IMG/VR virus record: IMGVR_UViG_3300024981_000245 | Length of the DNA stretch: 64,000 bases | Direction: 5' to 3' (one strand) | Source of the DNA: a virus | In this document: in pieces, positions 16,157-53,436 of the stretch | Layout: each line of letters begins with the position of its first letter | How positions within the stretch are numbered: the first letter of the stretch is position 1 | Translations under genes and position numbers: made by a program | The notes under the pieces: model-generated | Database searches by the model: none | Seen by the model: the letters and a program-made list of their open reading frames with translations, nothing else | What the model was told of the DNA's origin: nothing

Positions 16157-16171
16157 TTTGCCCACTAAAAT
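16157..16171 (+). promoter_or_regulatory. Operator variant TTTGCCCACTAA fused to -10 TAAAAT; leaderless promoter
   Basis: -10 is 6 nt before ATG 16178. Confidence 0.65.
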
Positions 16172-16177
16172 CAGAGC

Positions 16178-16399
16178 ATGGAACCTACTCGTAAGCGCGC
16201 AGCCAATCGACTCTCTTACCTCGCCAGTCAGGCCGAGCCCACACTGGATCGGCTCAGAGAAAGGATTGACGATCTGAGCGCCTTGACGCCGATGCCGCTG
16301 CACTCGGTCGCCCGGCTGCGTGCAGCTGTCGATGAGCTTTCCGAAGCCTTGACGGCCTTGCCGCCCGCATCGGTGCTTGCCGGTGCGAAGGTCGCTTAG
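16178..16399 (+). CDS. Hypothetical protein (leaderless)
   Basis: ORF with promoter. Confidence 0.6.
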   Translation: MEPTRKRAANRLSYLASQAEPTLDRLRERIDDLSALTPMPLHSVARLRAAVDELSEALTALPPASVLAGAKVA

Positions 16400-16623
16400 T
16401 GCGAAGCCGCCACCGTCAGAACGATCGCCGCCCACCCGGCCAGCATCCCCGCGACGCCGATTGCCGCGAGCGTTGCAGCTCGAGCCAGGGCGCGAAGGGC
16501 GAGAAATGCTCGCGTGCGGCCCTGTGAGCGCGCGTGCCGCGCTATCTCGGCGTCGGAGTATGCGAGCCAGGCTTGCAGTGTGCGGGCCGCTGTAGCGTCG
16601 CCGGCGAGAGTGTCGGGATGCAT
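16396..16623 (-). CDS. Small membrane protein
   Basis: C-terminal hydrophobic helix. Confidence 0.5.
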   Translation of the reverse strand: MHPDTLAGDATAARTLQAWLAYSDAEIARHARSQGRTRAFLALRALARAATLAAIGVAGMLAGWAAIVLTVAASH

Positions 16624-16625
16624 GG

Positions 16626-16904
16626 TTACTCGCAGTCGCACGTGAGGCCGGCGGCATCAACGGCAGCCGCGATGTCTTCGGACTCGACACCCCAGCGCCA
16701 AGCCATGAGGCGGTGTGCCTCGTCATAGGCGATCTCAGCGTCACAGAAACCGCTGTAGCGGTTGGCGCTAGTCTCGGCGATGGTGGCGCCGTCTTCATCG
16801 AACGCGATCCCGTAGGACTCAGCAGTGGAGGTGCCGCGCGTGATGAAGACGCGAGCGTCGATCTGTCCGATGCGGGACGGGATTGCGAGTTGGATAGTTA
16901 CCAT
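16626..16904 (-). CDS. Hypothetical protein
   Basis: SD GGGAG. Confidence 0.65.
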   Translation of the reverse strand: MVTIQLAIPSRIGQIDARVFITRGTSTAESYGIAFDEDGATIAETSANRYSGFCDAEIAYDEAHRLMAWRWGVESEDIAAAVDAAGLTCDCE

Positions 16905-16916
16905 GATGGTGTCTCC

Positions 16917-17042
16917 CTAGTTGCGTGCCGACATGGCGGCGATGATGGATGCGGCGTGCGAGTAGCCAACCGGGCGGTCCCAGTCAAGGTGTGCGCCCGC
17001 GTTCGGGCGGGGCGGCATGAGCGGCGGCAGTGTGGCGCTCAT
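16917..17042 (-). CDS. Small hypothetical protein
   Basis: 41 aa; weak support. Confidence 0.4.
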   Translation of the reverse strand: MSATLPPLMPPRPNAGAHLDWDRPVGYSHAASIIAAMSARN

Positions 17043-18013: not shown

Positions 18014-18270
18014 AGCGTCACCGGCTCATAAGCGTGGGCGGAAGACTCGCCGGCCTGGCAGTAGGCGCAGTCGTCGGGATGCTCCAGGGCTTCGATGGCT
18101 TCCAGCCATGCGGGGAATGTGCGGGCAACGATACGCCCCCGGATGGTGCCACGCTGCGCGCCGGCGAGCTTGTCGAATGAGCCGATGCGCTCACCCGTGG
18201 CAACATCGACGGCGATGACGTCATGGGGCCGCTCGATGACTTCAACAGTGCGGAGGGTTTCGGTTTTCAT
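18010..18270 (-). CDS. Hypothetical protein (leaderless)
   Basis: -10 TAGAAT 6 nt before ATG. Confidence 0.7.
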   Translation of the reverse strand: MKTETLRTVEVIERPHDVIAVDVATGERIGSFDKLAGAQRGTIRGRIVARTFPAWLEAIEALEHPDDCAYCQAGESSAHAYEPVTL

Positions 18271-18276
18271 GTTCCG

Positions 18277-18322
18277 ATTCTACCCGATTAGTGGACTAAA
18301 TGCGTAGAGATTAGTGGACTAA
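18277..18322 (-). promoter_or_regulatory. Leftward promoter with two tandem exact operators (18288-18299, 18311-18322)
   Basis: Seen directly; operators are 23 bp apart. Confidence 0.85.
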
Positions 18323-23740: not shown

Positions 23741-23982
23741 ATGACGAAAGTGTCAACCACCCCTCCCACTACACGTCTGATCCCAGTGGTATCGAGTGCA
23801 TCCAGATCACTCGGCATCGCAACTTCAATGTCGGCAACGCCATCAAATACCTCTGGAGAGCTGGCCTGAAGGTAGAGGGAGACCGCACGCTCGTCGAGAA
23901 GCAGTGCGAAGACCTGGAGAAGGCGATCTGGTACATCCAAGACGAGGTCGCCCGCCTCCGCTCCTCCTCACTCCAGCACTAG
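23737..23982 (+). CDS. DUF3310 (SaV-like) protein
   Basis: VNHPSHYT, GIECI, FNVGNAIKYLWRAGLK. Confidence 0.85.
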   Translation: MNDESVNHPSHYTSDPSGIECIQITRHRNFNVGNAIKYLWRAGLKVEGDRTLVEKQCEDLEKAIWYIQDEVARLRSSSLQH

Positions 23983-24150
23983 CCCAGATTCCAGGAGCAC
24001 CGCCCCCAGGGCCCTCTCTACGGCCCGGATGAAGATGCCCCTGTCGAAGGCGAAGCAGTGGTCTCCGGCTTCCAGAACGATGAAGTCGGGGCCACTGCTC
24101 AGCTCTACGCAGCGACCGCCGTCGAACTCCCTGATTGTGGTGGTGCTCAT
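23968..24150 (-). CDS. 60-aa protein under a LexA box (candidate antirepressor)
   Basis: SD GGGGAG; own promoter with SOS box. Confidence 0.7.
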   Translation of the reverse strand: MSTTTIREFDGGRCVELSSGPDFIVLEAGDHCFAFDRGIFIRAVERALGAVLLESGLVLE

Positions 24151-24167
24151 TTCTTCTCCCCAGAGTA

Positions 24168-24183
24168 TCGAACATCTGTTCGA
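24168..24183. promoter_or_regulatory. LexA (SOS) box TCGAACATCTGTTCGA
   Basis: Perfect match to actinobacterial TCGAAC-N4-GTTCGA; 3 nt downstream of the -10. Confidence 0.88.
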
Positions 24184-24186
24184 CAG

Positions 24187-24215
24187 AATCTATGCCACGT
24201 CACCGACATTGCCAA
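24187..24215 (-). promoter_or_regulatory. Sigma-A-type promoter of the 60-aa gene
   Basis: -35 TTGGCA (24210-24215), 17 nt, -10 TAGATT (24187-24192). Confidence 0.75.
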
Positions 24216-24348: not shown

Positions 24349-24372
24349 TACACTACACATTCAGTCCACTAA
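24349..24372 (+). promoter_or_regulatory. Promoter of the DGQHR gene with operator variant at the start site
   Basis: -10 TACACT (24349-24354); TCAGTCCACTAA (24361-24372). Confidence 0.7.
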
Positions 24373-24391
24373 TTCGTTCCAGGGAGCAAAA

Positions 24392-25795
24392 ATGGCCCAG
24401 ACCAAGGCCGCACCACGCCAAGCCGCCCCCACTGGCTACAGCACCGACACCCAGTTCTTCGCGTCTCGCTACCGCCAGGGTGGTCGAACCGTCTACTCGG
24501 TGGCCCTCACGCCCGACCAGATCATCAACAACATCCCGCGACCGAACCCCGAGCAGGCAAACCCCGGCAACCGCGCGATCCGGCCGGCGCACGCACAGGG
24601 CTTTGCGGACTACTACCTCCAGCATGACAACTGGATCATCCCCGGGCTCATCCTGCGCGCCCCGGACATCTTCGACTTCACCTCGGATCAGTCGGTCGTC
24701 ACCGGAGACATTGACTTCGGGATGCTCTCCTACCCCAACCGCAAACGCCTCGAAATCCAGATCCTCGATGGCCAGCACCGTATCCTCGGCTTCCACCTCG
24801 CGATTGAGAAGGTCGGCGAGTTGCTCGCCAAGGCGAAGGACCACCGAGCCCGGGCGCTGAAGACCGACCACAAGAACTCGCGTCTCGTGAAGGACGCCGA
24901 GGCCGAGGTAGAACGCCTCGAGCGCAAACTCGACCGCTTCCACCAGGAGCGCGTTTCTGTCGAGATCCAGGTCATCGACGACATCGCCTCATTCCGCCAG
25001 GCATTCTTCGACATTGCAGACAACGCGCTCGGTATCTCGGCATCCGTCAAGGCGCGCTTCGATAAGCGCAAGGTCGTCAACCGCGCCTTCGCGATCGTCG
25101 CTGAGCACCCCCTGCTCGTCGGCCGCGTCGACCCCGAGAACGACCGCCTCGGGCGCACGGGGCCGTACCTGCTGTCCGCACGCCATGTCGTTGAGATCAT
25201 TCGCGTCTCCAATGTAGGTATCGAAGGTCGTATCGGCGTCAAGCAGGAGAAGACGCTGAACGAGATCGAGGTGGCGAAGAAGGCTATGGCGTTCTTCGAT
25301 GCCGCTCTCAAGGCCTTCCCGCAGCTTCAGGCGATACAGGATGGCACGCTGACGCCGGATCGCCTGCGCCAGATCTCCATGCTCGGCTCGCCCCTGTTCC
25401 TGCGCATCCTCGCCGGCGCATACTACGAGTTGCGCGACCCGGTAAAGCATGCCTGGAGCGACGCGCAGGTCATCGAGTACTTTGAGGCAATCGGAAAGCA
25501 CCTCGCCGTCCCGCTGCACGCCAACACGATCTGGTTGAAGCACACGCCCGAGGACACCTTCAATGTGGGCGGATACGGCCCCAACGGTCGGCGCCAAGAC
25601 ATCATGAACCTCTCGCACGCGATGTGGGATTGGGCCCTGGATCACGCCGACTTCGTCTGGGCCGATCCCGAGCCTGCGCCGAAGCCCGAGCCGACCAAGG
25701 ATGAGCTGGAGATCGACTACAGCGACCTCGGCGACGAGGCCCTGGCTGAGCGCCTGAAGGCAGAAGACCTCGCATCGGGGATCAGCAAGAAGTAG
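24392..25795 (+). CDS. Orphan DndB/DGQHR-family (ParB-like fold) protein
   Basis: ILDGQHR, N-terminal GNR, RQAFFDI...S.SVKARFD. Confidence 0.85.
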   Translation: MAQTKAAPRQAAPTGYSTDTQFFASRYRQGGRTVYSVALTPDQIINNIPRPNPEQANPGNRAIRPAHAQGFADYYLQHDNWIIPGLILRAPDIFDFTSDQSVVTGDIDFGMLSYPNRKRLEIQILDGQHRILGFHLAIEKVGELLAKAKDHRARALKTDHKNSRLVKDAEAEVERLERKLDRFHQERVSVEIQVIDDIASFRQAFFDIADNALGISASVKARFDKRKVVNRAFAIVAEHPLLVGRVDPENDRLGRTGPYLLSARHVVEIIRVSNVGIEGRIGVKQEKTLNEIEVAKKAMAFFDAALKAFPQLQAIQDGTLTPDRLRQISMLGSPLFLRILAGAYYELRDPVKHAWSDAQVIEYFEAIGKHLAVPLHANTIWLKHTPEDTFNVGGYGPNGRRQDIMNLSHAMWDWALDHADFVWADPEPAPKPEPTKDELEIDYSDLGDEALAERLKAEDLASGISKK

Positions 25796-25810
25796 GGGAC
25801 ACGAATGGAA

Positions 25811-25845
25811 AGAACCCCGCCCGGAGCGATCACGGGCGGGGTTCT
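25811..25845. terminator. Intrinsic terminator after the DGQHR gene
   Basis: AGAACCCCGCCCG/CGGGCGGGGTTCT stem with T-rich tail. Confidence 0.8.
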
Positions 25846-25895
25846 TCTCGTGCAGACTCGGCTTACCTCCGCCAGTTTAGATCACAGAATCAGGA

Positions 25896-25918
25896 TTAGT
25901 CCACTAATCGGCTAGAAT
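25896..25918 (+). promoter_or_regulatory. Operator plus -10 TAGAAT; leaderless terS promoter
   Basis: Exact operator 25896-25907; -10 is 6 nt before ATG. Confidence 0.85.
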
Positions 25919-25924
25919 CGATCC

Positions 25925-26431
25925 ATGTCCGAGGATATGGAACTGAGCGAGTTCGATGAGAAGATCCTCGGGATGGCTGACTACATGAGCCCCGAGCAAA
26001 TCAGCAAGAAGCTCGGTGGCGCCGTTTCCGCAGCCAAGATCCGCCTCCAGCTTCAGCGCCTGCTCGAAGACGTCGACTGGATCACCGAGGCGCAGCGCGA
26101 GAACCTCCTCTTCCGCCGCATGCACATGATTCTCGCCAAGCTCGAGAGAATCCCCGGCTCTCAATGGGATCTCGACAACCTGAAGGTGCAGCTCGCGACC
26201 CTGAAGGAACTGGGCAACCGCTTCGACAAGCGCCGGCAGGCCAACGAGGTCGACCTCGAGCGCTACGACCGGAATGTCGCTCTTGAGATGGCCCGCGTCT
26301 ACGACATCGCCCTGTCCTATGTGAAGGGTGCCCTCCGTTCCGAGGTCGACGCCGAAAGATGGGATGAGGTCGCCCGAGCAGCGCTCGAGCATGCTCAGGG
26401 TGAGCTGATGAAGAAGGCGATCGAGGCCTAA
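25925..26431 (+). CDS. terS: Probable terminase small subunit
   Basis: N-terminal HTH-like helical protein upstream of terL. Confidence 0.55.
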   Translation: MSEDMELSEFDEKILGMADYMSPEQISKKLGGAVSAAKIRLQLQRLLEDVDWITEAQRENLLFRRMHMILAKLERIPGSQWDLDNLKVQLATLKELGNRFDKRRQANEVDLERYDRNVALEMARVYDIALSYVKGALRSEVDAERWDEVARAALEHAQGELMKKAIEA

Positions 26432-26452
26432 ATTAACTTGGCATGTGCAGCA

Positions 26453-26467
26453 TTAGTGGACTAAAAT
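26453..26467 (+). promoter_or_regulatory. Operator fused to -10 TAAAAT; leaderless promoter
   Basis: Exact operator 26453-26464; 7 nt to ATG 26475. Confidence 0.85.
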
Positions 26468-26474
26468 ACCTGTT

Positions 26475-27191
26475 ATGACAGTCTGTGGGTTTGCTGGCTG
26501 CGGTCTTCCCGTAACGTACCGCGGATACTGTCGCACGCATTACGGGCAGTGGAGAGCCGGCGAGCAACTGCGCCCATTTACCCCTCGCGTGCGGAGCGCG
26601 ACACTACGCCTCTGTTCGGTGGATGGCTGCTCTCGGCGCCATCAGGCCAAGGGCTATTGCGACGCTCACTACCAGCAGCTCAGGGCCGGGAAGCCGATTG
26701 GCCCGATACGCAGGTATGGCGAGCTGGGCAAGCCATGCCCGGCGAAAGAGTGCGGTCGTCCAATAGCCGTTGGCGGTCTCTGCTGGACCCACTACGAGCA
26801 GGCGAGGACGGGTAAAAAGCTGACGGAGATTGCTCGGCGGGAGAAACAGTCTGGCAAGTGCCTAGTTCCCACATGCGACAAGCCGGCGAAATCGAGAAGC
26901 GTATGCGGGAACCATACAAGGCTTAGGACCAACTTCAACCTCACCGACGATCAGATAGTCTCCATCTTCTCTGATCCACATTGCGAGATTTGCGGAACTA
27001 GGAATCCAGGCAAGAGATACTTCCATATGGACCATGACCATTCCTGCTGTCCGGTAGCCGGTATGTCGTGCGGAAAGTGCGTGCGCGGCCTTCTCTGCGG
27101 AGCTTGTAACCGCGGCCTGGGCTCTTTGTCAGACGATATCGAGAAGCTGCAATCAGCGATCGAATACCTGGAGAAGTACCGTGCTGCTTAG
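26475..27191 (+). CDS. Endonuclease VII-family HNH endonuclease with four N-terminal Zn repeats
   Basis: CEICG...HMDHDH...VRGLLCGACNRGLG; four C-x4-C...C..H repeats. Confidence 0.88.
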   Translation: MTVCGFAGCGLPVTYRGYCRTHYGQWRAGEQLRPFTPRVRSATLRLCSVDGCSRRHQAKGYCDAHYQQLRAGKPIGPIRRYGELGKPCPAKECGRPIAVGGLCWTHYEQARTGKKLTEIARREKQSGKCLVPTCDKPAKSRSVCGNHTRLRTNFNLTDDQIVSIFSDPHCEICGTRNPGKRYFHMDHDHSCCPVAGMSCGKCVRGLLCGACNRGLGSLSDDIEKLQSAIEYLEKYRAA

Positions 27192-28900: not shown

Positions 28901-28925
28901 TTAGCCCACTAATTCACCCTAAAAT
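28901..28925 (+). promoter_or_regulatory. Operator TTAGCCCACTAA plus -10 TAAAAT; leaderless portal promoter
   Basis: 7 nt to ATG 28933. Confidence 0.8.
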
Positions 28926-28932
28926 GGTGGGT

Positions 28933-30486
28933 ATGGACACCGTCGAACTGTCGCCCGATGCCGCTCTGAGCCGGGCGCAGGCGGTCATTGAGGTGATCCA
29001 CGAGAACGGCGAGTTGCGCGAGGCAATGTCCGCAGCGATGCGGGCACTGAAGGTCGAAGACGAGAACTGGACCAGCGCTTTCAGTGGCGACGGTTATGAG
29101 GGGCCGAGTCTGGAAGACATCCAGCGCGGTGCCGAGGAGATCCGCATGGCGATGGTCAAGTCGCCGATCATCGACCGGGGGGCGCAACTGCGCCACTCAT
29201 ACACATGGTCGAAGGGCGTCAAGCTTCCGAAGACGAAGCCTGCCGACTATGGCAACCGACGCGGCCCGAAGAGTCGTCTTGACAGAGCGCATGAAGCATT
29301 CCTGGATGACATCAACCAGCGCAACATCTTCAGCGACGTGGCTCACGAGGAGATGGAGCGCGCGCTCTACTCCGACGGTAACTTCTTCCTCCTCGGAGAC
29401 ATCGCATCTCGAACGCTCCGTCGTGTGCCGCTGAAGGAGATTGCCGGCTTCATCTCTAACCCCGACCACAACGACGAGGTATGGGCGTGGAAGCGGACGT
29501 GGAACTCGGTAGATGCCGATGGCAACAGCGCGACCAAGAGTGCCTGGTACTTCACCACCGACTGCCCCACCCCGCGAAAGAACCGACCGAAGAAGATCCG
29601 AGGCGTAGACGTCGACGAGTCGAAGGAGTTCCTGGTGCACTCCGTGAACCGCCAGGTTGGCTGGCCGCTCGGCATCCCCGACGCCATCGCGATCATCGCG
29701 TGGGCAAAGCTGTACAGCGAGTTCATGAAGTACGGCTACATCATGAACCGCGCCCTCGCCTCGATCGCCTTCAAGAGCGACCCGAAGACGAAGACGCAGG
29801 GCGAGAAGCAGGCGCTCCGCCTCGCGAGCGCAACGGGTGCAGGCCAGACCGCCATCGGCGCCAACGTCACTCCCCTCAACTCGGCCGGCAAGGGCTACGA
29901 CTTCGACGCGGGGCGCCCGATCGCGGCCATGGTAGCGACCGGCGTCCAGGTATCGATCGTGCACCTCTTGTCGGACCCGGGCGCCGCCGGATCCAGCTAC
30001 TCAGCCGCGGAGAGCCTCGATCTGCCGACGCGACGCGCTATTGCTGCGCGGCAAAAGTCTTGGTCGCTCTTCCTCGAGCGCGTGCTCCGCTGGATTGGCA
30101 TCGATGAGCCTGTTGTCACGTTCCCGCCGCTCGTCGACCCCGACTTCTACCGAGAGATGCAGTCCATCATCCTCGGCTGGAACTCCGGCACACTGCACGT
30201 CTCCGAGGTGCGCATGCGCCTGATTGAACTGCTCGATATCGTCACGGACGAAACCGATGCCCCCGAGGGTGTCATGCTTCCTAACAACGAGAAGTCGTGG
30301 CGGCGCGGCGATATCGATCCCAAGGATGGTCCCGCCGGTTCGACTTCATCCACGGCGTCCCCCGATCAAGGGCGTGGCAATGGCGCCGGCAACGCGCCGA
30401 CGGCGCATAGCCTCTCGATGTCGGGGTTCAACGATCCGCAAATCAGCGAGAAGTTGGAACAGATCCTCGAACTGCTGAACCGATGA
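28933..30486 (+). CDS. Portal protein
   Basis: Position after terL, ~517 aa, DGNFF and GWPLGIPD motifs. Confidence 0.85.
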   Translation: MDTVELSPDAALSRAQAVIEVIHENGELREAMSAAMRALKVEDENWTSAFSGDGYEGPSLEDIQRGAEEIRMAMVKSPIIDRGAQLRHSYTWSKGVKLPKTKPADYGNRRGPKSRLDRAHEAFLDDINQRNIFSDVAHEEMERALYSDGNFFLLGDIASRTLRRVPLKEIAGFISNPDHNDEVWAWKRTWNSVDADGNSATKSAWYFTTDCPTPRKNRPKKIRGVDVDESKEFLVHSVNRQVGWPLGIPDAIAIIAWAKLYSEFMKYGYIMNRALASIAFKSDPKTKTQGEKQALRLASATGAGQTAIGANVTPLNSAGKGYDFDAGRPIAAMVATGVQVSIVHLLSDPGAAGSSYSAAESLDLPTRRAIAARQKSWSLFLERVLRWIGIDEPVVTFPPLVDPDFYREMQSIILGWNSGTLHVSEVRMRLIELLDIVTDETDAPEGVMLPNNEKSWRRGDIDPKDGPAGSTSSTASPDQGRGNGAGNAPTAHSLSMSGFNDPQISEKLEQILELLNR

Positions 30487-30490: not shown

Positions 30491-30534
30491 TCGTTTTAGT
30501 GGACTAATTCGCCCCTACCATTGAAAGTATGACG
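30491..30534 (+). promoter_or_regulatory. Operator plus -10 TACCAT leaderless promoter; 42/44 identical to 37621-37664
   Basis: Direct comparison. Confidence 0.88.
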
Positions 30535-32965: not shown

Positions 32966-32977
32966 ACAACGCGCCAC

Positions 32978-33008
32978 AGAGGGCCGTCCCCACAAGGGGC
33001 GGCCCTCT
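32978..33008. terminator. Hairpin after the capsid gene
   Basis: AGAGGGCCG..CCC/GGG..CGGCCCTCT. Confidence 0.7.
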
Positions 33009-33032
33009 CGCCGTTCCCGCTGGCCGCAAGGA

Positions 33033-33047
33033 TTAGTCCACTAAACT
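33033..33047 (+). promoter_or_regulatory. Operator fused to -10 TAAACT; leaderless promoter
   Basis: Exact operator 33033-33044; 6 nt to ATG. Confidence 0.85.
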
Positions 33048-33053
33048 GAGGTC

Positions 33054-33563
33054 ATGGCCAACGCAGGAGTCTTCCCCCCGGACGTCACGTCGAACGTCGG
33101 ACTTCTGCGCATTCTGATCAACGACACCGCTGGCGTCCCCCTGAGCCCGCCGGTGTCCGGTCAGGCCGACTACCCGCTCTGGTCCGACAACTCGCTCCTG
33201 GGGGCGCTCATCGTCGCTGGTGACGTTGTTTACCGCGCTGCCGGCGACCTCTACTCGGCGCTCGCGGCCGAGTACGCGCAGGATGAAGAGTCGATCAAGA
33301 CCGACGACCTCGCAGTTGACCGTAAGGGGAAGGCTGCCACCTTCCTGAAGATCGCGCAGTCCTTTTACGCGCGAGCGGACTCCGATGCCGCGACTACGGA
33401 CAGCGACTACTTCGACCTCGCGCCGATGGGCACGAGCGCCTATTCGCAGGCCGTGGAAGCGGGCGTGTGGCCCGAGCTGTGGTGCGAACAGCCCTGGGCA
33501 CCGCTGGAACCCTACGAGCCCGTCACGCCTCCCCCGCCGGCGCCCAGCGGGTACGGCTACTAA
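33054..33563 (+). CDS. Head-to-tail adaptor
   Basis: VGLLRILINDT..., IKTDDL.VD; position. Confidence 0.7.
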   Translation: MANAGVFPPDVTSNVGLLRILINDTAGVPLSPPVSGQADYPLWSDNSLLGALIVAGDVVYRAAGDLYSALAAEYAQDEESIKTDDLAVDRKGKAATFLKIAQSFYARADSDAATTDSDYFDLAPMGTSAYSQAVEAGVWPELWCEQPWAPLEPYEPVTPPPPAPSGYGY

Positions 33564-33911: not shown

Positions 33912-33945
33912 TTGCCGATGGCCGAAGATCCGCGTGATTCCGGGC

Positions 33946-34012
33946 TGGTAGCGGGAGCGGGGCTTGAACCCGCGACCTCACGATTATGAGTCGTGCGCTC
34001 TCACCAACTGAG
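33946..34012 (-). pseudogene. 5'-truncated tRNA with CAT anticodon (Met/Ile2 type), attP common core
   Basis: CTCAGTTGGTGAGAGC...CTCATAA...GGTTCAAG...CCA; 5' acceptor strand absent. Confidence 0.85.
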
Positions 34013-34143
34013 AAAAGGGGGCAAACTGGCTTGTTGCGAACTGTGCGCGAGGTCGCATGTTGCGCGTCTTTTCGCGGTTTTGGCGTTCGAGCGGGGTGCG
34101 GTTAGTGGCATCTTGTGGAGGGGTGCGGCTACACATTCGCTAC

Positions 34144-35219: not shown

Positions 35220-35408
35220 GTGATCTTGAAGATGTCGGAGATGGAGAGAAGGTCCGGCCTTTCGCGGTACACGCTCATGCGTGCGCTGAAAGCTGGCAAG
35301 CTCCACGGCATGCACACCGGCGTCAACGGCACATGGCGTGTCCGTGAGGAGTGCTTCGAGAACTGGCTCGAGGGCGAGCGGTGCGCCCATCAGGCGGTGG
35401 CGGCATGA
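35220..35408 (+). CDS. xis: Excisionase (MerR-like HTH)
   Basis: 62 aa, divergent from int, GLSRYTL...GKLHG...WRV. Confidence 0.75.
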   Translation: MILKMSEMERRSGLSRYTLMRALKAGKLHGMHTGVNGTWRVREECFENWLEGERCAHQAVAA

Positions 35409-36039: not shown

Positions 36040-36271
36040 GATCCGCACCACTCGCCAGGCGCGCGCGCTCCGCCCGATCGCTGCTGAGCGTGCGCGGCAG
36101 TCGCACTTCCACGCGGGAGATCGTGCCCTCCACCGCGGCATAACGTGGGGCGAGGTTGACATCCTTCTGATCGTGCCACGCAAGCCTTACAACAGTGCGA
36201 TCTTCCGCGGGCGCAGCGCAGCGTTCATCGGCAGCCTGGCTGACGTCCACCCCGTAGCCCCCATCGATTAG
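36032..36271 (+). CDS. Hypothetical protein
   Basis: Coupled ORF. Confidence 0.5.
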   Translation: MPRIRTTRQARALRPIAAERARQSHFHAGDRALHRGITWGEVDILLIVPRKPYNSAIFRGRSAAFIGSLADVHPVAPID

Positions 36272-36282
36272 CCCACTAAACT
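36268..36282 (+). promoter_or_regulatory. Operator TTAGCCCACTAA fused to -10 TAAACT; leaderless promoter
   Basis: 6 nt to ATG 36289. Confidence 0.82.
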
Positions 36283-36288
36283 GGCATC

Positions 36289-36729
36289 ATGCCCATGAAG
36301 CCTATCCAAAAGGACTGGGCGGCCTCGATCTTCCAGGTCGCCCAGGAGTTCATGGACGGCGAGCTGTGCGTCATCAAGCCGGGGACGCCCGGAACCTACG
36401 ACCCGGTGACAGATGAAGTCACGGGCGGAACGCCGGATCAGGTGATCATTGACTGGCGAGCCGCTCGCGCACAGCACATCCGCATGCCGCTCGAGACTAA
36501 CGACAGCAACGGCTGGACGGCGCGCCGGCGCTTCCGCTTCCAGATGGAGTTGCGCGAGAATGACCCCGCTATCACGCAGGGTCTCGTCGTGCGCTACCGC
36601 GGCGGCAAGGATCCCGCGCTTTCCGCGCTCAGCTATCAGGTCATCTCCGCCGTCAACTCCTCGCACGCCCCGCTTCGCACCATCGAGACGATGACCGAGC
36701 AGAAGCCCGTCACCGAGGATGCACCGTGA
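36289..36729 (+). CDS. Head closure / head-to-tail stopper
   Basis: PGTYDPVTDEV motif; position. Confidence 0.65.
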   Translation: MPMKPIQKDWAASIFQVAQEFMDGELCVIKPGTPGTYDPVTDEVTGGTPDQVIIDWRAARAQHIRMPLETNDSNGWTARRRFRFQMELRENDPAITQGLVVRYRGGKDPALSALSYQVISAVNSSHAPLRTIETMTEQKPVTEDAP

Positions 36730-37620: not shown

Positions 37621-37664
37621 TCGTTTTAGTGGACTAATTCGCCTCTACCATTGAAGGTATGACG
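37621..37664 (+). promoter_or_regulatory. Operator plus -10 TACCAT leaderless promoter (second copy)
   Basis: Exact operator 37626-37637; 7 nt to ATG. Confidence 0.88.
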
Positions 37665-44580: not shown

Positions 44581-44595
44581 TTAGTCCACTAAACT
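44581..44595 (+). promoter_or_regulatory. Exact operator fused to -10 TAAACT
   Basis: Upstream of the tail chaperone. Confidence 0.85.
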
Positions 44596-44628
44596 GGATC
44601 CTGACCACTTAAAGAAGGAGGCTCCGCC

Positions 44629-45345
44629 GTGGGCAAGAAGAACGACCAGATCGAGATCGAAGAGATCGTTGATGAAGCGCGTAGCAACATGAACCTGCGC
44701 GAACGCCTGCTTGGTATCACTCGCCGAGAGAAGACGATCAATGTCTACACGGACGAGGAGACGGGCGAAGCGCTCGGCGGCGCTGAGGATCTGCTGATCC
44801 CGGGGACCACCTTCAAGTCCGGCGACAAGCGTCGCTGGGGAGTTCTCGGAGAGCTGGATCTCCTGAACGAGCGCGCTGAGCGGCTCGCCATGCAGATCGA
44901 GAACGGCGAGATCACCGAGGATGACGCCGCGCCCGAGATCGAGAAGATCGAAGCGCGCATGCCCGAGCTTCGCACCGAGGCGAGGAAGCTTCTCGCCAAG
45001 CTCAACAAGACGTCATTCGCGTTCACGCTGCGCGCGGTCCCCGAACTGATCATCAAGGATGCGCGCCGGCAGGCGAAGCACAACCTCGAGATCAAGGGAA
45101 AGGTGCCCGAAGGGCGCCTGGATGAGTTCAACGAGGAGCTGTACAACGTCCTCATCGCGTCGGCCGTCACTTCCTGGGTCGACAACGAGACGGGAAGCAC
45201 GCACCACTCGCTGAGCGTCGAGGACACCCGCACGTTCCGAGAGCTTCTCCCCCGCAGCGAGTTCCCGAAGCTCGTCGAAGCGTTCGATGAGCTGTCGGCG
45301 CAGGCGCACATTGCGCGCTCGGCCACCGACGACGTGGATTTTTGA
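44629..45345 (+). CDS. Tail assembly chaperone (short form)
   Basis: Position before tape measure; ends in a slippery site. Confidence 0.8.
   Translation: MGKKNDQIEIEEIVDEARSNMNLRERLLGITRREKTINVYTDEETGEALGGAEDLLIPGTTFKSGDKRRWGVLGELDLLNERAERLAMQIENGEITEDDAAPEIEKIEARMPELRTEARKLLAKLNKTSFAFTLRAVPELIIKDARRQAKHNLEIKGKVPEGRLDEFNEELYNVLIASAVTSWVDNETGSTHHSLSVEDTRTFRELLPRSEFPKLVEAFDELSAQAHIARSATDDVDF
45336..45342 (+). other. Probable -1 frameshift site G GAT TTT
   Basis: -1 frame continues into ORF 45342-45779, which lacks an SD. Confidence 0.7.
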
Positions 45346-45779
45346 CGTCGTACCTTTGGTCGAATGCCGGGTCGGTTTTTGTCGAGGCCATCGAGGCAGC
45401 GATCCGGGCAGGGGTACGCCCAACAACGATGATCCTCGGCGAGGACAATCGCAAGCCCTACTCGCAGATGGATGTGCTCATTTCGCTCGCCTACGAGCGC
45501 TATAAGAACGAGACGTGCCCCGAGCACGGCGGACCCATCTGGCTATGTCGGAACGCTGATCCCACCCTCCAGGTCAAAGTCGTCGATACGCCGGCGTGCT
45601 ACGCGACCCAGGAGGTGCGGCTCTATGAGGAAAAGCACAAGGATGACGACGAGAAGGTCTCAGTTAAGGCTGAGTTCTACTCACGCATCGACCTGCCGTT
45701 GCATAAGTACCGTGACCGTTACTACGCCGATCTGATGGCCCCCGATGAGGAAGACGAGCCCGCGGACGCCGCAGATTAG
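45342..45779 (+). CDS. Tail assembly chaperone C-terminal extension (frameshift product)
   Basis: -1 frame relative to 44629. Confidence 0.75.
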   Translation: MTSYLWSNAGSVFVEAIEAAIRAGVRPTTMILGEDNRKPYSQMDVLISLAYERYKNETCPEHGGPIWLCRNADPTLQVKVVDTPACYATQEVRLYEEKHKDDDEKVSVKAEFYSRIDLPLHKYRDRYYADLMAPDEEDEPADAAD

Positions 45780-45790
45780 TCCACTAAACT
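45776..45790 (+). promoter_or_regulatory. Exact operator fused to -10 TAAACT (tape measure promoter)
   Basis: Operator 45776-45787 contains the chaperone stop codon. Confidence 0.85.
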
Positions 45791-45824
45791 GATAGGACGA
45801 ACGGCATAGACGGAGACGGGCGCA

Positions 45825-48800
45825 ATGGCTGAACTCGATGCGGTAGCCCGCCTCAGGTTCATCGCCGACGGCGCCAAGCAAGTCGAAGACGCGATCGCGC
45901 GCGTGCGCGATGAGGGGATCGCTCTCGACAAGAGCTTCGACCGGCTCGAGCGCGACATGTCGCGCCTGTCGTCGACAGCGTCCAAGCTCTCCACGGATGT
46001 CGGCTCAGCGGGCTCCGCCGCCCGCCAGTCCTCGCAAGACGCCACTCGTGCGGCTACGGGGTGGGACGCGTACTCCAAGAGCCTCCTCGCCGCCCAGAAG
46101 GCGCAGCGCGACGCTTCGCAGCGCTCGGTGATGAGCCAGTTCGGTGCCAGCGCGATTCCCGCGAAGTCCGCCGAGAACATGACGATCGGCGAGCGGCGGG
46201 CCACGCTTGCCGCCTATGAAGCGCAGACCGTTTCGGTCATCGGCAAGCTTCGCCAGATGGAGGCGGCCGAGCAGGCGGTGAACAAGGCTGTCGCTGAGCG
46301 CTACGCCGCGGCGAAAAGCCAGTCTGCACGCAGTTCGATCTCCTCCGGTGTCAGCGGGTTCTTCGACAACGCGGGCAACGTGTCCAACATCACGGGTGCA
46401 CAGAAGTGGCTCGCCGATTACGACGCGCAGGTCAACGCCCTCGCCTCGAAGTCCTCCCCCAGGCTCCGCTATGCCCTCTACGACGTAGCGTCCACTGCTG
46501 GCGTGCTGTCGACGGCGATCACGTCCGCTGGCGCGGCAGTCGGAGTGCTCGCCGCTCAGCAGGAGTCGGCGTTCACCAATGTGCAGCGCACGCTCGACGG
46601 CGGAACGACCGAGTCCGTCGCACGCCTGCGCAAGGAACTCGTCGGGCTCACACGTGAGATCCCCCAGTCGTTCGCCAACATCGCAGAGATCGCGACCCTG
46701 GGTAACCAGCTCGGCATCCAGGCGCAGGACATCGGCCGGTTCACGGAGACGGTCGCGAAGTTCTCCGCCGTTACCGGCATCTCCGCTGAGGCCAGTGCCC
46801 AGGCATTCGGCTCGCTCGGTCAGATCCTCGGCGTCGGCGCCAGCCAGTACGAGAACCTCGGCTCCTCGATCGCGTATGTCGCGCGTACGAGCGTGGCCAC
46901 TGATGCCGAGATCCTCTCGCTCACCAGGGAGATCGGCCAGCAGGCAACGTCCGCAGGCTTCGCCGCCGATCAGGTTGTCGGCCTTGCGGGCGCGCTCGCG
47001 TCGCTGCGAGTGCCGCCTGAGCGTGCGCGCGGCGCCCTGACCACCTACTTCCAGACGCTCAACCAGCTCGTGGCAGAAGGCGGCGACAAGCTCGACCTGT
47101 TCGCCTCCCTCGTCGGCCGCACGTCACAACAGCTCACTGCCGATGTCGTCGGCGGTCGTGGCGCGCAGGTCTTCAAGGATTTTGCGGTATCACTCAGCCA
47201 GCTCAACACGGTCGACGCCACGCGTGCTCTCGATGAGCTGGGGCTTTCGCAGCTTCGCGTAGCTGACACCTTCACCCGCGTCGCCGCCAACCTCGAGGTC
47301 TACGATCAGGCCCTTGCGGGCGCCTCGCAGTCCTTCCGCGATGGTAAGGAACTCGGACGCCAGTATGCGATGGTCGTGGATGACATCGCGAGCCGCTGGC
47401 AGATCTTCATCAACGCCGTCCAGGAGGCGGGAGCCGCCGTCGGCGCTGTCCTCGGCCCAGCGATCGTCACTGTGCTCGATCTCCTGGCCAAGGTTGCCCA
47501 GGGCTTCGCGTCCTTCGTCAACACCCCACTCGGCCAGGGTCTTGTCACTCTGTCCGCAACCATCGGTGGCATCACTGCTGCCCTGGCGGGCATCGTCACG
47601 GTCAGCGCTCTCGCTGTCGGGTCTCTCGCAGCCGTTAGGACGGCCGCCGTCGAGCTGGGCATCGTCTCCGCCGGAACGACAACGGGACTGAGCGGCCTGG
47701 TCGGAGCGCTCCTCGGACTCCAGACCGCAACCGGCGGTGCAGCGATCGCGTTCAAGGTGCTCAAGGGTGCCATGATCGCCACGGGCATCGGCGCTGTGGT
47801 CGTTCTGCTCGGCACGCTCATCCAGATGGCTGGCGGTGTCGGCCCCGCGATCATCGATGTCGTCAACTTCCTCGAGCTGATGTACAACTCGGTCGGCAAG
47901 TTCGCGACCCCGTTCCGCAACCTCTTCGGCGTCATCGGTGGGCTCGCCGCCATGTTCGACCGCTTCTCGGGCAGCGCGCTCACCGCCGCACAGATCGTCG
48001 ATCTCGTCGGAAAGGTCATCTACAACTCCATTGTCCAGACCGGTCAGGATGTCGTCGGTGCCGCCCAGGGATTCGTCAACTGGGGTCGCGCCGTCATATC
48101 GGTGGTCACCGCCGTTGCCCGCCAGCTCCTCGGCCCCCTGTCCGGCATCGTGGGCATGTTCCAGCAGGCTGGGCAGCTCATCGGGGCAATCCTCAAGCCC
48201 ATCGGCGACGCGCTCAGCGTCTTTGGATCGGGTTTCACCGACGGGCTCGCAGCCTTCGACGGCGCGGTCGGATCCGGGTTCGACCAGATTCGTAACTTCG
48301 CCGCCAGCCTGCCGAGCACCGATGACGCTCTTTCCTCGCTCGGCGACACGGCGGCCCTGACTGCTGACAACCTCAATGGCGGAACGGGGAGCCTCGGCGA
48401 CGCTGCGGATGGCGCGGCGGCGAAGGTGCGTACGCTCACCGACTACGCGAACGACCTCAGCGGCGTCATGTCGCGCGCGTTCGATCTGCGCTTCGGCAAC
48501 CAGCAGGCCCTCGACACCATTACGGGCTCCTGGTCCAAGATCGCGTCGACAATCGCCGACGCTCGCGAGGAGATGGCTGGCTACGTCACCGACTTGCAGG
48601 GCATGGCTGCCGACCGCGCGATCAAGCAGTACTGGCTCTCGGTCGCCGAGAACTACGGCGATGCCCTGCGCGCGCAGCAACTGCGCGCGGACCTGGCAGA
48701 CCTGGACAAGAAGCAGGCCGACACCCAGAAGAAGCTTGCAACCGCGCAGGACAAGACCACGAAGACCCTCGACGGCAACAGTGACGCAGCGATCGCCAAC

Positions 48801-50548: not shown

Positions 50549-52128
50549 GCGGCACGGGCGTCGATGTCACGATCGGTGGGCTTCCCGTCTGGAATACGGG
50601 CGCGTACTCGATCACCGAGGACTCCACCCCGACCGCACCAGATGATTCCAGCGGCGGCTACGGACAGATCCAGCTCCCCATCCGGGACAAGGCCGGTGTC
50701 AAGAGCCTCAGCGGCAAAGCGCTCACTCTGGAGGACGGGTCGCAGGGCAAGACGAGCGGCATCGTTCGCGGGCTCAGCGGTGACGGGCTTACCGCCCAGA
50801 TCACCGCGGACTCGCGACTCGGGCTGACCGCCGTCAAGCGCCAGGCTCAACCCTTCGTCGGACTCCTCGGCAATGCGATCCGCTACTACCTCGGACTGTG
50901 CGGGGTGACGAGTGGCATCGTTGTTGACTCTTCGCTCGAGCCCGTCGCGGTGAAGCTCCCCGGATGGAATGCGGTCGTCTACGACCAGCTCAAGAAGCTT
51001 GCGACCGCACGCAAGTTCGAGGTGTCACTGACCTCAAGCAACATCGTCTTCCGCCCCCTGCGCACCCGGACGGCTGAGAACTACCGCGATGCGAAGTCCT
51101 CGTGGGCGCTCGACGAGTCGAACCTAGCTCAGTCCGTAGAGGGCTACTTCTACGACTACGCCTCTGGAACGCAGCTCGCGTACCCGCCCGGCGGGTGGAG
51201 CGAGGACGTCACCGTCTACACCCTGAACGCGGGTGAGACGACCGTAATCAACCTCGACATCGATGCTTCACTTTCCTCGGTAGAGCAGCCGACGTGCGTT
51301 GCGTTCGTGGGCCGCAACGATTCTGGATCCAGCGTCTACGCGGTTGCTGGCAATGACGGGCTACCGATCCAGCCCGCGCAATGGCTTGCCGGTGGCGGAT
51401 CCGTCAAGGTGGAAATCGGAGACGACACCAAGAGCCTCAAGGTCACGATCACCGCCTCCTCCGAGACGCAGTACGCGCCTTACCGCATCGCCGTCTCGGC
51501 TGGTACCAGCGACTACTACTCTTCGCTGCGCATCCGCGGTACCGGCGTGTTCTTCAACAAGCAGAAGATGACCTTGCCCGCATGCCTGGACGCCGACCGG
51601 GCGCCGCAGGAGATCGGCGCCACCGTCGATAACGAGTTCTTCGAGACGCGGGACCAGCTTTATCACGCCCTCCTGCGATCTGCGGCTCGCTACTCCAGCG
51701 CGCGGCACACGATCAGCGTGCAGTCCAAGGGCATCAACCGCAGTGGCGAATCCGGCTCCTACGTCTACCCCACGATCGGCGAACTCAAGGCCCTGTACCC
51801 CGGCGCCACGATCGGCAGTATCCGCCTTCAGCCTGGCCTTGGCGGGACTATCGCACAGTGGAATGAGACGCTCCGCGACCTTGTCGACGGCGACTTCGTA
51901 AACCAGGCATTCGGCAACGTCGCCGGGGCGCGAGTGGTCAGCGACGACTGCGTGCTGCGCATCCGCTCATCGACCCTGGCGCCTGGATCCCTCACCTACA
52001 CCGCAGAACGTGACATCACGATCAAGGACGTCTTCCGCAGCGGTGAGACTATCGGGCAGTGGAATGCACGCTGGGCTGGTAAGACGATCCGAGACGTGAA
52101 GCTGACCCCACTTAGCGGACTAAACTAG
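50545..52128 (+). CDS. Minor tail protein (baseplate hub position)
   Basis: 527 aa, position. Confidence 0.75.
   Translation: MSGTGVDVTIGGLPVWNTGAYSITEDSTPTAPDDSSGGYGQIQLPIRDKAGVKSLSGKALTLEDGSQGKTSGIVRGLSGDGLTAQITADSRLGLTAVKRQAQPFVGLLGNAIRYYLGLCGVTSGIVVDSSLEPVAVKLPGWNAVVYDQLKKLATARKFEVSLTSSNIVFRPLRTRTAENYRDAKSSWALDESNLAQSVEGYFYDYASGTQLAYPPGGWSEDVTVYTLNAGETTVINLDIDASLSSVEQPTCVAFVGRNDSGSSVYAVAGNDGLPIQPAQWLAGGGSVKVEIGDDTKSLKVTITASSETQYAPYRIAVSAGTSDYYSSLRIRGTGVFFNKQKMTLPACLDADRAPQEIGATVDNEFFETRDQLYHALLRSAARYSSARHTISVQSKGINRSGESGSYVYPTIGELKALYPGATIGSIRLQPGLGGTIAQWNETLRDLVDGDFVNQAFGNVAGARVVSDDCVLRIRSSTLAPGSLTYTAERDITIKDVFRSGETIGQWNARWAGKTIRDVKLTPLSGLN
52112..52126 (+). promoter_or_regulatory. Operator TTAGCGGACTAA fused to -10 TAAACT inside a gene end; leaderless
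   Basis: 6 nt to ATG 52133. Confidence 0.8.
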
Positions 52129-52132
52129 GCTC

Positions 52133-52804
52133 ATGCCGAGGATCCCAGATGCCGCCCTCGGTGGGCCCGCAGATCAGCCGTGGAAGCGTTATGTCGACGG
52201 AGGGCTGGAGTCGCTCGAGCTTGCACTAAACCGGCTAGCGTCTGATTCAAGCGCATCGGGCAAGGGTCTGGCTGCCACCGCCGACGGGCTCGCGCGTCAG
52301 ATCTCTGTCCTTGCGCAGCAGACCGCCGATCTTGTTGGTCGAGCTTCCTACCAGAAATCATCTACGGATACGATCTCCTGGTCGAGCAGCGTGACAGGTT
52401 CGAGTCCTTTTGGCCCCGAGCTAACCGTTACGCTCAATGAGTCACGCGTTATTTCTGTGAGCTTCTTTACGAGCGCTGATGCCAGTGCCAGCACCGTTGG
52501 CGCTGGCACGATGAACCTATGGGGATCTACGGGCGTTGCCATCGACGGAGTCGCAGTGAGCGAAGATCTGGGGGCGCGGGGCTACATTCTCGTCTCCGCG
52601 GCTTCAAATGCTGGCGCTTCCGCCAACAACAGGTTCATCATTCCCATCACCGCGCGATTCCTAGTGGTCCTACCGGCAGGAGCGCACACCCTCCGGGGCC
52701 TCGTTTACGGACGCACATCAACGTACTCTGGCACCGGATCCGGATTCGGTTCGATTGATCTCAGAGAGCCAGCTCTGTTTGCAGACGTGCTCCAACTCGC
52801 ATAG
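52133..52804 (+). CDS. Minor tail protein
   Basis: Ser/Gly-rich beta domain. Confidence 0.65.
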   Translation: MPRIPDAALGGPADQPWKRYVDGGLESLELALNRLASDSSASGKGLAATADGLARQISVLAQQTADLVGRASYQKSSTDTISWSSSVTGSSPFGPELTVTLNESRVISVSFFTSADASASTVGAGTMNLWGSTGVAIDGVAVSEDLGARGYILVSAASNAGASANNRFIIPITARFLVVLPAGAHTLRGLVYGRTSTYSGTGSGFGSIDLREPALFADVLQLA

Positions 52805-52823
52805 CCGCATCCATGACTCGGGA

Positions 52824-52848
52824 TTAGTGGACTAATCGCGAATAAACT
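52824..52848 (+). promoter_or_regulatory. Exact operator plus -10 TAAACT; leaderless
   Basis: 6 nt to ATG 52855. Confidence 0.85.
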
Positions 52849-52854
52849 GGAGGC

Positions 52855-53436
52855 ATGCCTACCCCGCTGTATGGACTCCCGCTTTACGGAGACGACGATA
52901 CGGCGGAGCTGGATGTACTCCTCAACGGCCAGTCGACGGCAATCGAGACGGCGCTCTCTACCCAGTTCGTTGACCGAAATGGCATGTCGGTACCCAACTT
53001 CGCCTCCCTCCCCACAGGCGGGAATTGGCAGGGTCGGCTTCTCACGACCCGCGACATGGGCTTCGTGTATGTCTGGGCTGGATCCTGGCTTCAGGTTGGT
53101 GGGGGTTCTTGGCTTACGGCCTCAACCAGCATCTCGGCCGGGTCTGGGGCGATCAATTCTGGGAACGCCGCGCACAAATACAAGTACGTCGAGGGCGCGG
53201 TCGTTGACTCTGTCACGGTGACCATCTCCAATGCTGGAACAGGTGGCGGCGGCCTATCTGTGGAAATGCCATTCACCGTAGCGGGAACCTGGATGGGGGT
53301 GGGCCGCAGCGAGATTGATGGGTCTCAGTTGCAAGTTCGCGTTCAGGGATCGTCCGCAACAGTTTTCAAATACAACAACAACACCCCCATCGCAAATGGA
53401 ACGCTCTTCTTCACTGTAACGTGCGGACTGAGCTGA
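52855..53436 (+). CDS. Minor tail / fibre protein
   Basis: MPTPLYGLP N-terminus; fibre-like GRL...D.G.VYVW. Confidence 0.65.
   Translation: MPTPLYGLPLYGDDDTAELDVLLNGQSTAIETALSTQFVDRNGMSVPNFASLPTGGNWQGRLLTTRDMGFVYVWAGSWLQVGGGSWLTASTSISAGSGAINSGNAAHKYKYVEGAVVDSVTVTISNAGTGGGGLSVEMPFTVAGTWMGVGRSEIDGSQLQVRVQGSSATVFKYNNNTPIANGTLFFTVTCGLS

Follow-up and report, generated by a model that had tools for sequence, protein, structure and literature searches.

How are the virion genes of a temperate phage kept silent and then switched on late if, as the initial annotation of this genome proposed, they are read from many separate leaderless promoters instead of one late operon? The window, i.e. the whole 64,000-nucleotide stretch analysed (IMG/VR record IMGVR_UViG_3300024981_000245), represents the complete genome, 59,687 bp in length, of a temperate Microbacterium phage for which megablast found no close cultured relative.

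Leaderless starts and the associated palindrome

All 11 TANNNT hexamers originally listed were recovered, lying exactly 6 nt (16178, 18270 on the minus strand, 25925, 33054, 36289, 52133 and 52855) or 7 nt (26475, 28933, 30529 and 37659) 5' of the ATG. The best Shine-Dalgarno match spans 0-4 nt ahead of these starts and 5-7 nt in half of the other genes, in agreement with the general lack of an upstream Shine-Dalgarno noted earlier, and the claimed pairing with an operator also holds, each start adjoining a copy of TTAG-N4-CTAA, of which the one at 16157 is imperfect (Table 1). Hexamer and operator are not independent at five of these 11 positions, where the TAA that opens the -10 belongs to the operator itself. 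The perfect palindrome is present in 23 copies in the phage versus none in 30 Markov simulations, and no TTAG/CTAA palindrome with another spacer length was found in the phage; the copies are mostly promoter-linked, those at 1542, 12203 and 23199 being without an evident promoter. The hexamer occurs at 14 of the 99 called starts versus 1.2% of ATGs overall (p about 2e-11), with five of the 14 set by hand, because of which the comparative test given below is the stronger one. Leaderless-type starts absent from the earlier list are found at 19076, 35148 (integrase) and 43367 (GDSL), all on the minus strand.

Not all of the 11 starts belong to virion genes as had been supposed: those at 16178 and 18270 precede small early-region orphans and that at 26475 an inserted HNH/endo VII gene. 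The relocation of the portal start to 28933 is supported by the same geometry in relatives and by a separate gene prediction, which gives 517 aa. The operator-linked -10s with leaders reported for the tail chaperone, tape measure and holin are likewise present, but the holin identity of the 68-aa two-helix gene at 56434 finds no support from Pfam or PHROGs. The terS gene is named only by position and homology to relatives, and no family match was found for the 223-aa tail-region gene.

Table 1. Predicted late promoters and other regulatory features of the phage, in coordinates of the window
Feature	Coordinates	Strand	Details
P-terS, leaderless	25896..25927	+	operator 25896-25907, 5-bp gap, -10 TAGAAT 25913-25918, ATG 25925
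P-HNH/terL	26438..26477	+	-35 TTGGCA, operator 26453-26464 overlaps -10 TAAAAT 26462-26467, ATG 26475
P-portal	28901..28935	+	operator 28901-28912, 7-bp gap, -10 TAAAAT 28920-28925, ATG 28933 (revised start)
P-protease (protease, decoration, major capsid)	30496..30531	+	operator 30496-30507, 8-bp gap, -10 TACCAT 30516-30521, ATG 30529
P-adaptor	33033..33056	+	operator overlaps -10 TAAACT 33042-33047, ATG 33054
P-DUF6093 (head-closure block)	36268..36291	+	operator overlaps -10 TAAACT 36277-36282, ATG 36289
P-preMTP (65-aa gene, two major tail genes, following)	37626..37661	+	operator, 8-bp gap, -10 TACCAT 37646-37651, ATG 37659
Tail assembly chaperone promoter, leadered	44581..44631	+	operator overlaps -10 TAAACT 44590-44595, SD, GTG 44629
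Tape measure and minor tail genes promoter, leadered	45776..45827	+	operator overlaps -10 TAAACT 45785-45790
223-aa tail-region gene promoter, leaderless	52112..52135	+	operator overlaps -10 TAAACT 52121-52126, ATG 52133
Promoter of 193-aa gene, endolysin, following; leaderless	52824..52857	+	operator, 7-bp gap, -10 TAAACT 52843-52848, ATG 52855
Putative holin promoter, leadered	56395..56436	+	operator overlaps -10 TAAAAT 56404-56409
73-aa orphan, leaderless start, early region	16157..16180	+	imperfect operator; not virion gene
86-aa early-region orphan, leaderless ATG 18270	18268..18322	-	tandem operators 18288, 18311; not virion gene
attP, integrase and Xis	33945..35408	.	attP = tRNA-CAT fragment, shared core ends 34012
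Integrase	34144-35148	-	within attP module
Xis	35220-35408	+	operator 35192 over Xis promoter
Strong hairpin between dndB and terS	25807..25851	+	-32 kcal/mol
Strong hairpin after major capsid gene	32970..33014	+	-31 kcal/mol; no U-tract
Strong hairpin where late and early transcription converge	56687..56731	.	-29.5 kcal/mol
DndB/DGQHR (ParB-fold) gene	24361..25795 (gene 24392-25795)	+	imperfect operator over own promoter; candidate immunity repressor
60-aa gene and promoter, divergent from dndB	23968..24215	-	Sigma-A promoter TTGGCA-17-TAGATT; candidate SOS-controlled antirepressor
Twin helix-turn-helix protein, 3' of primase	58323..58706	-	candidate late activator
WhiB-family protein	4344..4631	-	PF02467 E 7e-8; alternative candidate for redirecting RNA polymerase

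Organization of the late region

On the whole, 12 promoter-like sites, nine of them leaderless, serve about 28 late genes, in accordance with the proposal of many separate, mostly leaderless, host-sigma-type promoters. All 12 have an operator and none a phased repeat of the kind described below. The -10 sequence varies within the phage, and only P-HNH/terL, which is predicted to drive the inserted HNH/endo VII gene together with terL, has a -35; the promoter of the capsid block has neither a -35 nor a TGn. A CG at -36/-35 is seen in 9 of the 12 (raw p 8e-7), a signal that is weaker in the other operator-type phages (7/21 at -36, 13/21 at -36 or -35).

A consensus terminator scan of the phage performed at chance level, and hairpin energies were therefore used instead; strong hairpins were seen at only four of the junctions tested. 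That at 25807..25851 is predicted to insulate terS from dndB transcription, and at that in 32970..33014 four nested head transcripts are likely to end together. Given the few hairpins, the ratio of promoters to genes, and the absence of own promoters for terL and the capsid gene, the late transcripts are probably nested polycistrons. The virion genes appear to have separate promoters, although their description as an alternative to operons was overstated. A lambda-type arrangement, with a single promoter ahead of all virion genes, was not found, and the position of attP splits the head genes from the tail genes in the prophage.

Conservation in relatives

A leaderless -10 (6-8 nt) precedes terS in 34/36, portal in 30/35 and protease in 34/34 family loci (present phage included), the adaptor in 14/31 orthologues, and terL, decoration, capsid and dndB in 0/35, 0/33, 0/34 and 0/35 family loci, respectively, these relatives being non-independent samples. 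The cultured phages Hortus1 and Musetta, which are lytic and repressor-less, and the cultured CMP1 show the same leaderless late layout, with no TTAG-N3/4-CTAA in their examined regions; in Hortus1 and Musetta the tail chaperone start, leadered in the present phage, is also leaderless, and in four Hortus1 genes the annotated start codon falls inside the -10. Cluster ED phages are described as lytic and devoid of repressor or integrase (PMC7302621). The literature covered, from which many journals are missing, gave no account of leaderless late genes for CMP1 or for cluster ED. The leaderless late layout is common to the whole phage family, including its culturable members.

What lies upstream of the -10 differs between lineages. 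A TTG at -35 is seen in none of 102 conserved late promoters, and an extended -10 (TG at -15/-14) in 0/17 operator-type versus 8/51 repeat-type promoters, being common in Hortus1. Phased CCTG repeats mark 24 promoters, mostly before virion genes, in five relatives of one lineage whose genomes are complete or nearly so; these repeats stand in the operator's place in an activator-like manner and are absent from the present phage. One relative lineage has an invariant -10, TAGACT (20/20). No regulator peculiar to the repeat lineage stood out when the genomes G001 and G002 were compared with the present phage.

Candidate regulators

As the earlier derepression scheme had assumed, the palindrome resembles a repressor operator in its behaviour: at many promoters, those of Xis and dndB among them, it lies across the -10 or the start site, which would make activation from these positions impossible. 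The likely repressor is the DndB/ParB-fold protein (PF14072, E 1e-22, 80.9 bits versus a cut-off of 29.1), in which the DGQHR motif is invariant in a 7-row alignment. Its gene is flanked by the 60-aa gene and terS, and neither dndCDE nor partition genes were recognised in the phage. In the structural model, the N-terminal domain resembles SspE (152 aligned, Z 6.5, rmsd 4.7) as well as PadC (100 aligned, Z 6.1, rmsd 3.3), no DNA-binding fold could be recognised in the C-terminal domain (best Z 5.3), and no HTH was found; Foldseek and PDB sequence searches returned nothing significant. In favour of this assignment, operator variants follow the dndB gene: a 3-bp-spacer variant is confined to one DndB clade (99/98), whose phages are scattered on the capsid tree, with one member, L115, having a 4-bp spacer. 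The promoter class likewise requires five changes on the DndB tree versus 8-11 on the structural-gene trees, which except for protease are quick FastTree builds. The twin-HTH tree fits equally well (four changes, 19 genomes), and hence this co-variation does not single out the binder.

A perfect LexA-type box (24168-24183) lies at the Sigma-A promoter of the 60-aa gene, and a LexA-like box is found in the interval separating the small gene from dndB in 13 of 20 relatives outside the repeat lineage versus 4% of control windows. A similar box at 54645 in G002 was discounted, as it is inside a reading frame. None of the phage proteins scanned was recognised as a sigma factor or an antiterminator, and the statement that no antiterminator is needed agrees with the lack of any obvious need for antitermination. 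The twin-HTH protein or the WhiB protein may be a late activator. The gene for the former is retained in 9/9 complete relatives, its second recognition helix is conserved in the repeat lineage only, and an Atlas search with it gave only leads below 0.9; the WhiB gene is present in 8/10 complete relatives. The present phage has no strong activator-like motif.

A model for late gene expression

From the observed motifs, their geometry and conservation, and the gene content, we infer transcription starts, protein-site pairing and timing as follows. We hold with slightly better than even confidence that the late region is read from 12 staggered, -35-independent host sigma-A promoters, for which derepression would be necessary but probably insufficient, with a phage factor likely to be required. 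A single repressor, for which the DndB/ParB-fold protein is the most likely candidate, would in the lysogen bind TTAG-N4-CTAA at early, late and excision promoters. At the late ones it would sit over the -10 or roughly a helical turn 5' of it, and it would shield the virion genes placed at both prophage ends. Induction would probably proceed via a LexA-controlled small antirepressor. Host sigma-A polymerase would then read the late region as nested transcripts sharing few 3' ends, with terS, terL, portal and the protease/decoration/capsid block covered by one, two, three and four promoters, respectively, and mRNA dose would thereby rise with copy number. Late timing and strength would likely depend on a phage factor, twin-HTH or WhiB, favouring -35-less promoters, given that an operator common to early and late promoters cannot by itself set late timing.

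A more elaborate version of this model is offered tentatively as a possibility. A DndB/DGQHR ParB-fold NTPase, rather than an HTH cI, would be the immunity repressor that directly silences each leaderless late promoter in a widespread Microbacteriaceae prophage family, with the LexA-controlled 60-aa antirepressor inducing it. The 30-40-bp late promoters would have been rewritten in each lineage, bearing either the operator or phased CCTG repeats that a twin-HTH activator reads, so as to suit whichever regulators are resident after structural-gene swaps.

The initial annotation favoured simple derepression without a late activator. Promoters with only a -10 can work unaided in Actinobacteria, and lateness could then arise from weak promoters, rising gene dose and titration of the repressor during replication. 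The operator at every late promoter, the gene-by-gene exchange of repeat for operator in operator-type phages, and the lack of a recognised sigma factor or antiterminator among the proteins scanned are consistent with this. However, the absence of a TTG -35 from all 102 late promoters, the replacement of the operator by CCTG repeats in one lineage and the persistence of the layout in lytic relatives without a repressor make it doubtful, as do the identical operators at early promoters, the dependence of the capsid block on so bare a promoter, the retention of the twin-HTH gene in all nine complete relatives, and the presence of WhiB and HTH candidates in the genome; we consider it rather unlikely.

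It is distinctly improbable that the palindrome binder is a dual regulator, repressing from the -10 or start site and activating from 7-9 bp upstream at portal, protease and preMTP. These three promoters have no -35, the gap between operator and protease -10 is 7-9 bp in 11/11 operator-type loci with a detected site, and the DndB C-terminal domain gives weak matches to the MerR family (Z 2.6-3.2); but these matches are at noise level, the orthologous portal and terS sites of L016 overlap the -10, and the spacer is also the best position for a repressing operator.

One or two long late operons, with internal hexamers that are weak or by-products of the operator CTAA half-site, would fit the five hexamers that begin inside an operator, the few terminators and the single late RNA start of mapped mycobacteriophages (PMC5712189, PMC11373665), but are highly improbable, as the hexamer is separate from the operator at six sites, recurs at an unchanged distance whichever of three unrelated contexts lies upstream and also where the operator is missing from the phage, and is never carried by coupled genes, and as attP splits the region.

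Comparison with known systems

The closest precedent is the Thermus temperate phage Lalka27a, next to which phiYS40 is placed. Lalka27a likewise has many late promoters (16 proposed), a TANNNT -10 some 6 nt ahead of the start, few terminators and RNAs that for the most part are leaderless (as predicted in the present phage), with antitermination not proposed (bioRxiv 10.64898/2026.04.20.719267). It differs in belonging to another phylum and in sharing a distinct late -10, TAGGGT, from which its authors infer a phage factor, whereas the present phage has a variable -10 and an immunity-type operator at each late promoter.

Among actinophages, cluster O mycobacteriophages (PMC4351075) and Microbacterium cluster EG (PMC7302621) have a genome-wide short palindrome in 10-34 copies and some predicted leaderless SigA promoters; their palindromes do not accompany a promoter at every virion block, the SigA promoters are predicted with a -35, and no binder is proposed in the passages considered. 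The operator-stoperator system of L5/D29 similarly relies on one repressor, whose roughly 24 sites are spread over the genome of a temperate actinophage, but these sites are asymmetric, oriented and mostly off promoters, features that the present palindrome lacks, and they are bound by an HTH repressor in phages with a single late RNA start (PMC5712189). The Streptomyces phage phiC31 is likewise a temperate actinophage, and several of its virion-gene junctions bear a palindrome, but it has no leaderless virion starts. It has multiple phage-activated promoters and repressor-bound inverted repeats; its repressor was rejected as a DndB homologue, having no match to the DndB profile.

ParB-fold NTP-binding repressors that act on palindromes include DndB of phosphorothioation operons, which is autoregulated (PMC4507180; PMC12704722), and the RK2 plasmid protein KorB (PMC13768133); the phage protein differs in its lack of recognised accompanying dndCDE or partition genes and of an HTH in the model, its palindrome binding being predicted. 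The KorB site TTTAGC(G/C)GCTAAA equals the L016 operator letter for letter, which may be a coincidence.

Actinophage promoters have been called poorly defined (PMC11373665). The present comparison names candidate regulators, including a repressor type with no matching record in the cultured-phage collection searched, entails start corrections for the portal gene here and four Hortus1 genes, and yields base-level predictions of late starts for the cultured Musetta, Hortus1 and CMP1, so that the timing and dosing of virion genes in Micrococcales phages become directly testable.

Leaderless starts and their conservation

The leaderless late-promoter architecture of this phage is real and family-wide. 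The initial annotation had placed a TANNNT hexamer 6-7 nt before the ATG at 11 sites; this is true of all 11, and the hexamer is found at 14 of 99 called starts, against 1.2% of all ATGs. At five of the 11 it begins within the CTAA of the operator palindrome, so that these prove little by themselves. The attribution of all 11 to virion genes fails for three, namely 16178 and 18270 (the latter on the minus strand), which are early-region orphans, and 26475, an HNH/endo VII gene. On the whole, the late region, of about 28 genes, has operator-linked -10s at 12 places, nine of them leaderless and three leadered.

We compared about 36 non-redundant loci, including this phage, from viral contigs, metagenomes and Microbacteriaceae genomes. 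In these mutually related loci the -10 lies 6-7 nt before the start of terS in 28/36, portal in 25/35, protease in 29/34 and adaptor in 11/31, or 34/36, 30/35, 34/34 and 14/31, respectively, at 6-8 nt, and it is found before none of terL (0/35), decoration (0/33), capsid (0/34) and dndB (0/35). Protein similarity among the loci is often no higher than 25-60% and their upstream sequences vary, so the fixed distance is under selection. The same geometry supports 28933 as the portal start, and an independent gene caller made the same choice. In one lineage (L027, L109, L112, L117, L118, L120 and L125) the -10 is always TAGACT, and a C-rich stretch, mostly of 8 nt, separates it from the start codon; this may represent a leader of 1-2 nt or an element for dedicated recognition.

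The capsid and terminase have distant kin in Microbacterium cluster ED/GB, Arthrobacter AQ and Clavibacter phages. Among cultured relatives, Hortus1 (L198) shows the leaderless layout at portal and protease with starts as annotated, and also at terS, adaptor, pre-tail gene and chaperone once four annotated starts are shifted 9 nt downstream. The GenBank start codons of its genes 30, 39, 43 and 46 fall inside the -10 hexamer, and comparison with Musetta N-termini supports real starts that are probably 9 nt downstream. Musetta has five leaderless-type starts, as does the lytic phage CMP1, with the CMP1 protease as a further case if an alternative start is used; WaterT and Amigo have one apiece and several leadered -10s. 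The regions examined of Hortus1, Musetta and CMP1 contain no TTAG-N3/4-CTAA.

The operator and its candidate regulators

The palindrome TTAG-N4-CTAA occurs in 23 perfect copies in this genome and in none of 30 simulated genomes; no perfect copy with another spacer length is present here. At late promoters it either overlaps the -10 or stops 5-9 bp (usually 7-8) upstream of it, a distance of roughly one helical turn. It also lies over early promoters, the Xis promoter and, imperfectly, the dndB promoter. Where it overlaps the -10 or start site, only repression is possible. Copies at 1542, 12203 and 23199, after tRNA-Asn or within early genes, have no evident promoter and may act as roadblocks.

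A DndB/DGQHR gene directly precedes terS in nearly all family loci, a count biased by the use of dndB as the query for most of them; 7/8 capsid-fetched loci extending to the terS region also carry it. DndB, a repressor known to autoregulate, has a ParB-like NTP-binding fold (PMC4507180, PMC12704722), and the N-domain of the modelled DndB-like protein resembles SspE and PadC with modest Z. An operator variant with a 3-bp spacer is restricted to one DndB clade, yet dispersed on the capsid tree. The protein is a candidate repressor that would bind the palindrome. Relative L016 combines head genes near those of this phage (terL 74%) with a DndB from another clade, and its operators, TTTAGC(G/C)GCTAAA, have the same letters as the RK2 KorB site. 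Numerous DndB-like homologues, from Actinomycetota and elsewhere (L029-L074, L130-L133), have no virion genes next to them.

A 60-aa gene divergent from dndB combines a perfect LexA-type box with a sigma-A promoter. Of the relatives outside the repeat lineage, 13/20 have a similar box at the equivalent place, compared with 4% of control windows, suggesting that the gene may encode an SOS-controlled antirepressor. A different 51-aa leaderless gene in relative L005 (G001:57643), with promoter TTGAAA-17-TATGTT and a perfect LexA box over the -10, is a second candidate.

Transcript structure, derepression and activation

The gaps between terL, portal and protease (about 40 bp) leave space for operator and -10 and scarcely more. 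Of the junctions that were folded, only those after dndB, the capsid gene and the putative holin, and the one before attP, have strong hairpins (-26 to -32 kcal/mol); hence, late transcription probably yields nested RNAs that share 3' ends. Four promoters would then serve the capsid gene, and one terS. Thus, of the proposed separate promoters replacing a single late operon, the many promoters stand, but probably not as isolated units.

Four findings argue against the accompanying proposal, that late expression is derepression alone. The operator, being shared by early and late promoters, cannot set their order. TTG at -35 is absent from all 102 conserved late promoters, and TGn is present in few; several early promoters of this phage do have one or the other. 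In 16 relatives, CCTG/GCTG direct repeats of 11-bp period abut the -10 in place of the operator at the majority of head promoters. A scan recovered 24 such promoters in the genomes of five of these, most of them preceding virion genes; this phage gave none, and seven other genomes gave a single weak match. The fixed phasing of the repeats (-38 to -13) appears activator-like. Late promoters are also retained in lytic relatives without a repressor, cluster ED phages being described as lytic and devoid of repressor and integrase (PMC7302621).

Candidates for a late activator are the twin-HTH protein encoded after primase, kept in 9/9 complete relatives and CMP1, with a second recognition helix conserved in the repeat lineage only, and WhiB (8/10 complete relatives). 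This phage itself shows a single additional signal, CG at -36/-35, which 9/12 late promoters carry and which is weaker in relatives. Because promoters with only a -10 can function without help in Actinobacteria, pure derepression is a possible, though less likely, reading for the operator-type lineage.

Promoter classes, assigned by eye and then checked by counts, require five changes on the DndB tree and four on the twin-HTH tree (19 genomes), against 8-11 on the portal, capsid, protease and terL trees. This suggests that promoters are rewritten to match resident regulators once structural genes have been exchanged; shared ancestry, too, gives low counts.

Genome and integration

The 63% GC genome is circular and whole at 59,687 bp, as 59688-64000 repeats 1-4313. 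Its integrase, excisionase-type HTH and tRNA fragment indicate that the phage is temperate. It is integrated in another contig, where host genes begin after position 34012 and the adjoining gene takes its name from Microbacterium sp. 69-7. With attP between them, head and tail genes lie at opposite prophage ends after integration. An operator at 35192 separates the divergent int and xis starts (35148-35203), as in several relatives.

Features of the genome outside the late promoters
Feature	Position	Strand	Remarks
tRNA-Asn(GTT)	1562-1635		directly 5' of primase gene
AT-rich non-coding stretch	15679-16100		flanked by early units that diverge; may be the replication origin or a genome end
51-aa AbrB/MazE-like protein	23439-23594		assigned by eye; conserved near dndB in many relatives
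tRNA fragment	33957-34013
Integrase	34144-35148	-	own leaderless-type start, TACTCT 6 nt before
Excisionase-type HTH (Xis)	from 35220
Cassette with O-antigen ligase-like (Wzy_C), small membrane protein and GDSL hydrolase genes	41051-44522	-	amid tail genes; interval includes the second tyrosine integrase, strand is that of the three genes named here; relative L012 has a similar set; may be a moron or a mobile element of its own
Second tyrosine integrase	43602-44522		part of the cassette

Comparison with known systems

The architecture is open to direct testing, with the mechanism first proposed for it only partly supported. Mapped mycobacteriophages differ in that late RNA begins at one site (PMC5712189, PMC11373665), and the genome-wide palindromes of clusters O and EG are without the coupling to promoters seen here (PMC4351075, PMC7302621). 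The closer likeness is to Thermus phage Lalka27a, for which 16 late promoters have been proposed, the RNAs are mostly leaderless, antitermination is not invoked and a phage factor is inferred (bioRxiv 10.64898/2026.04.20.719267); a strategy of many, mostly leaderless late promoters is thus already known.
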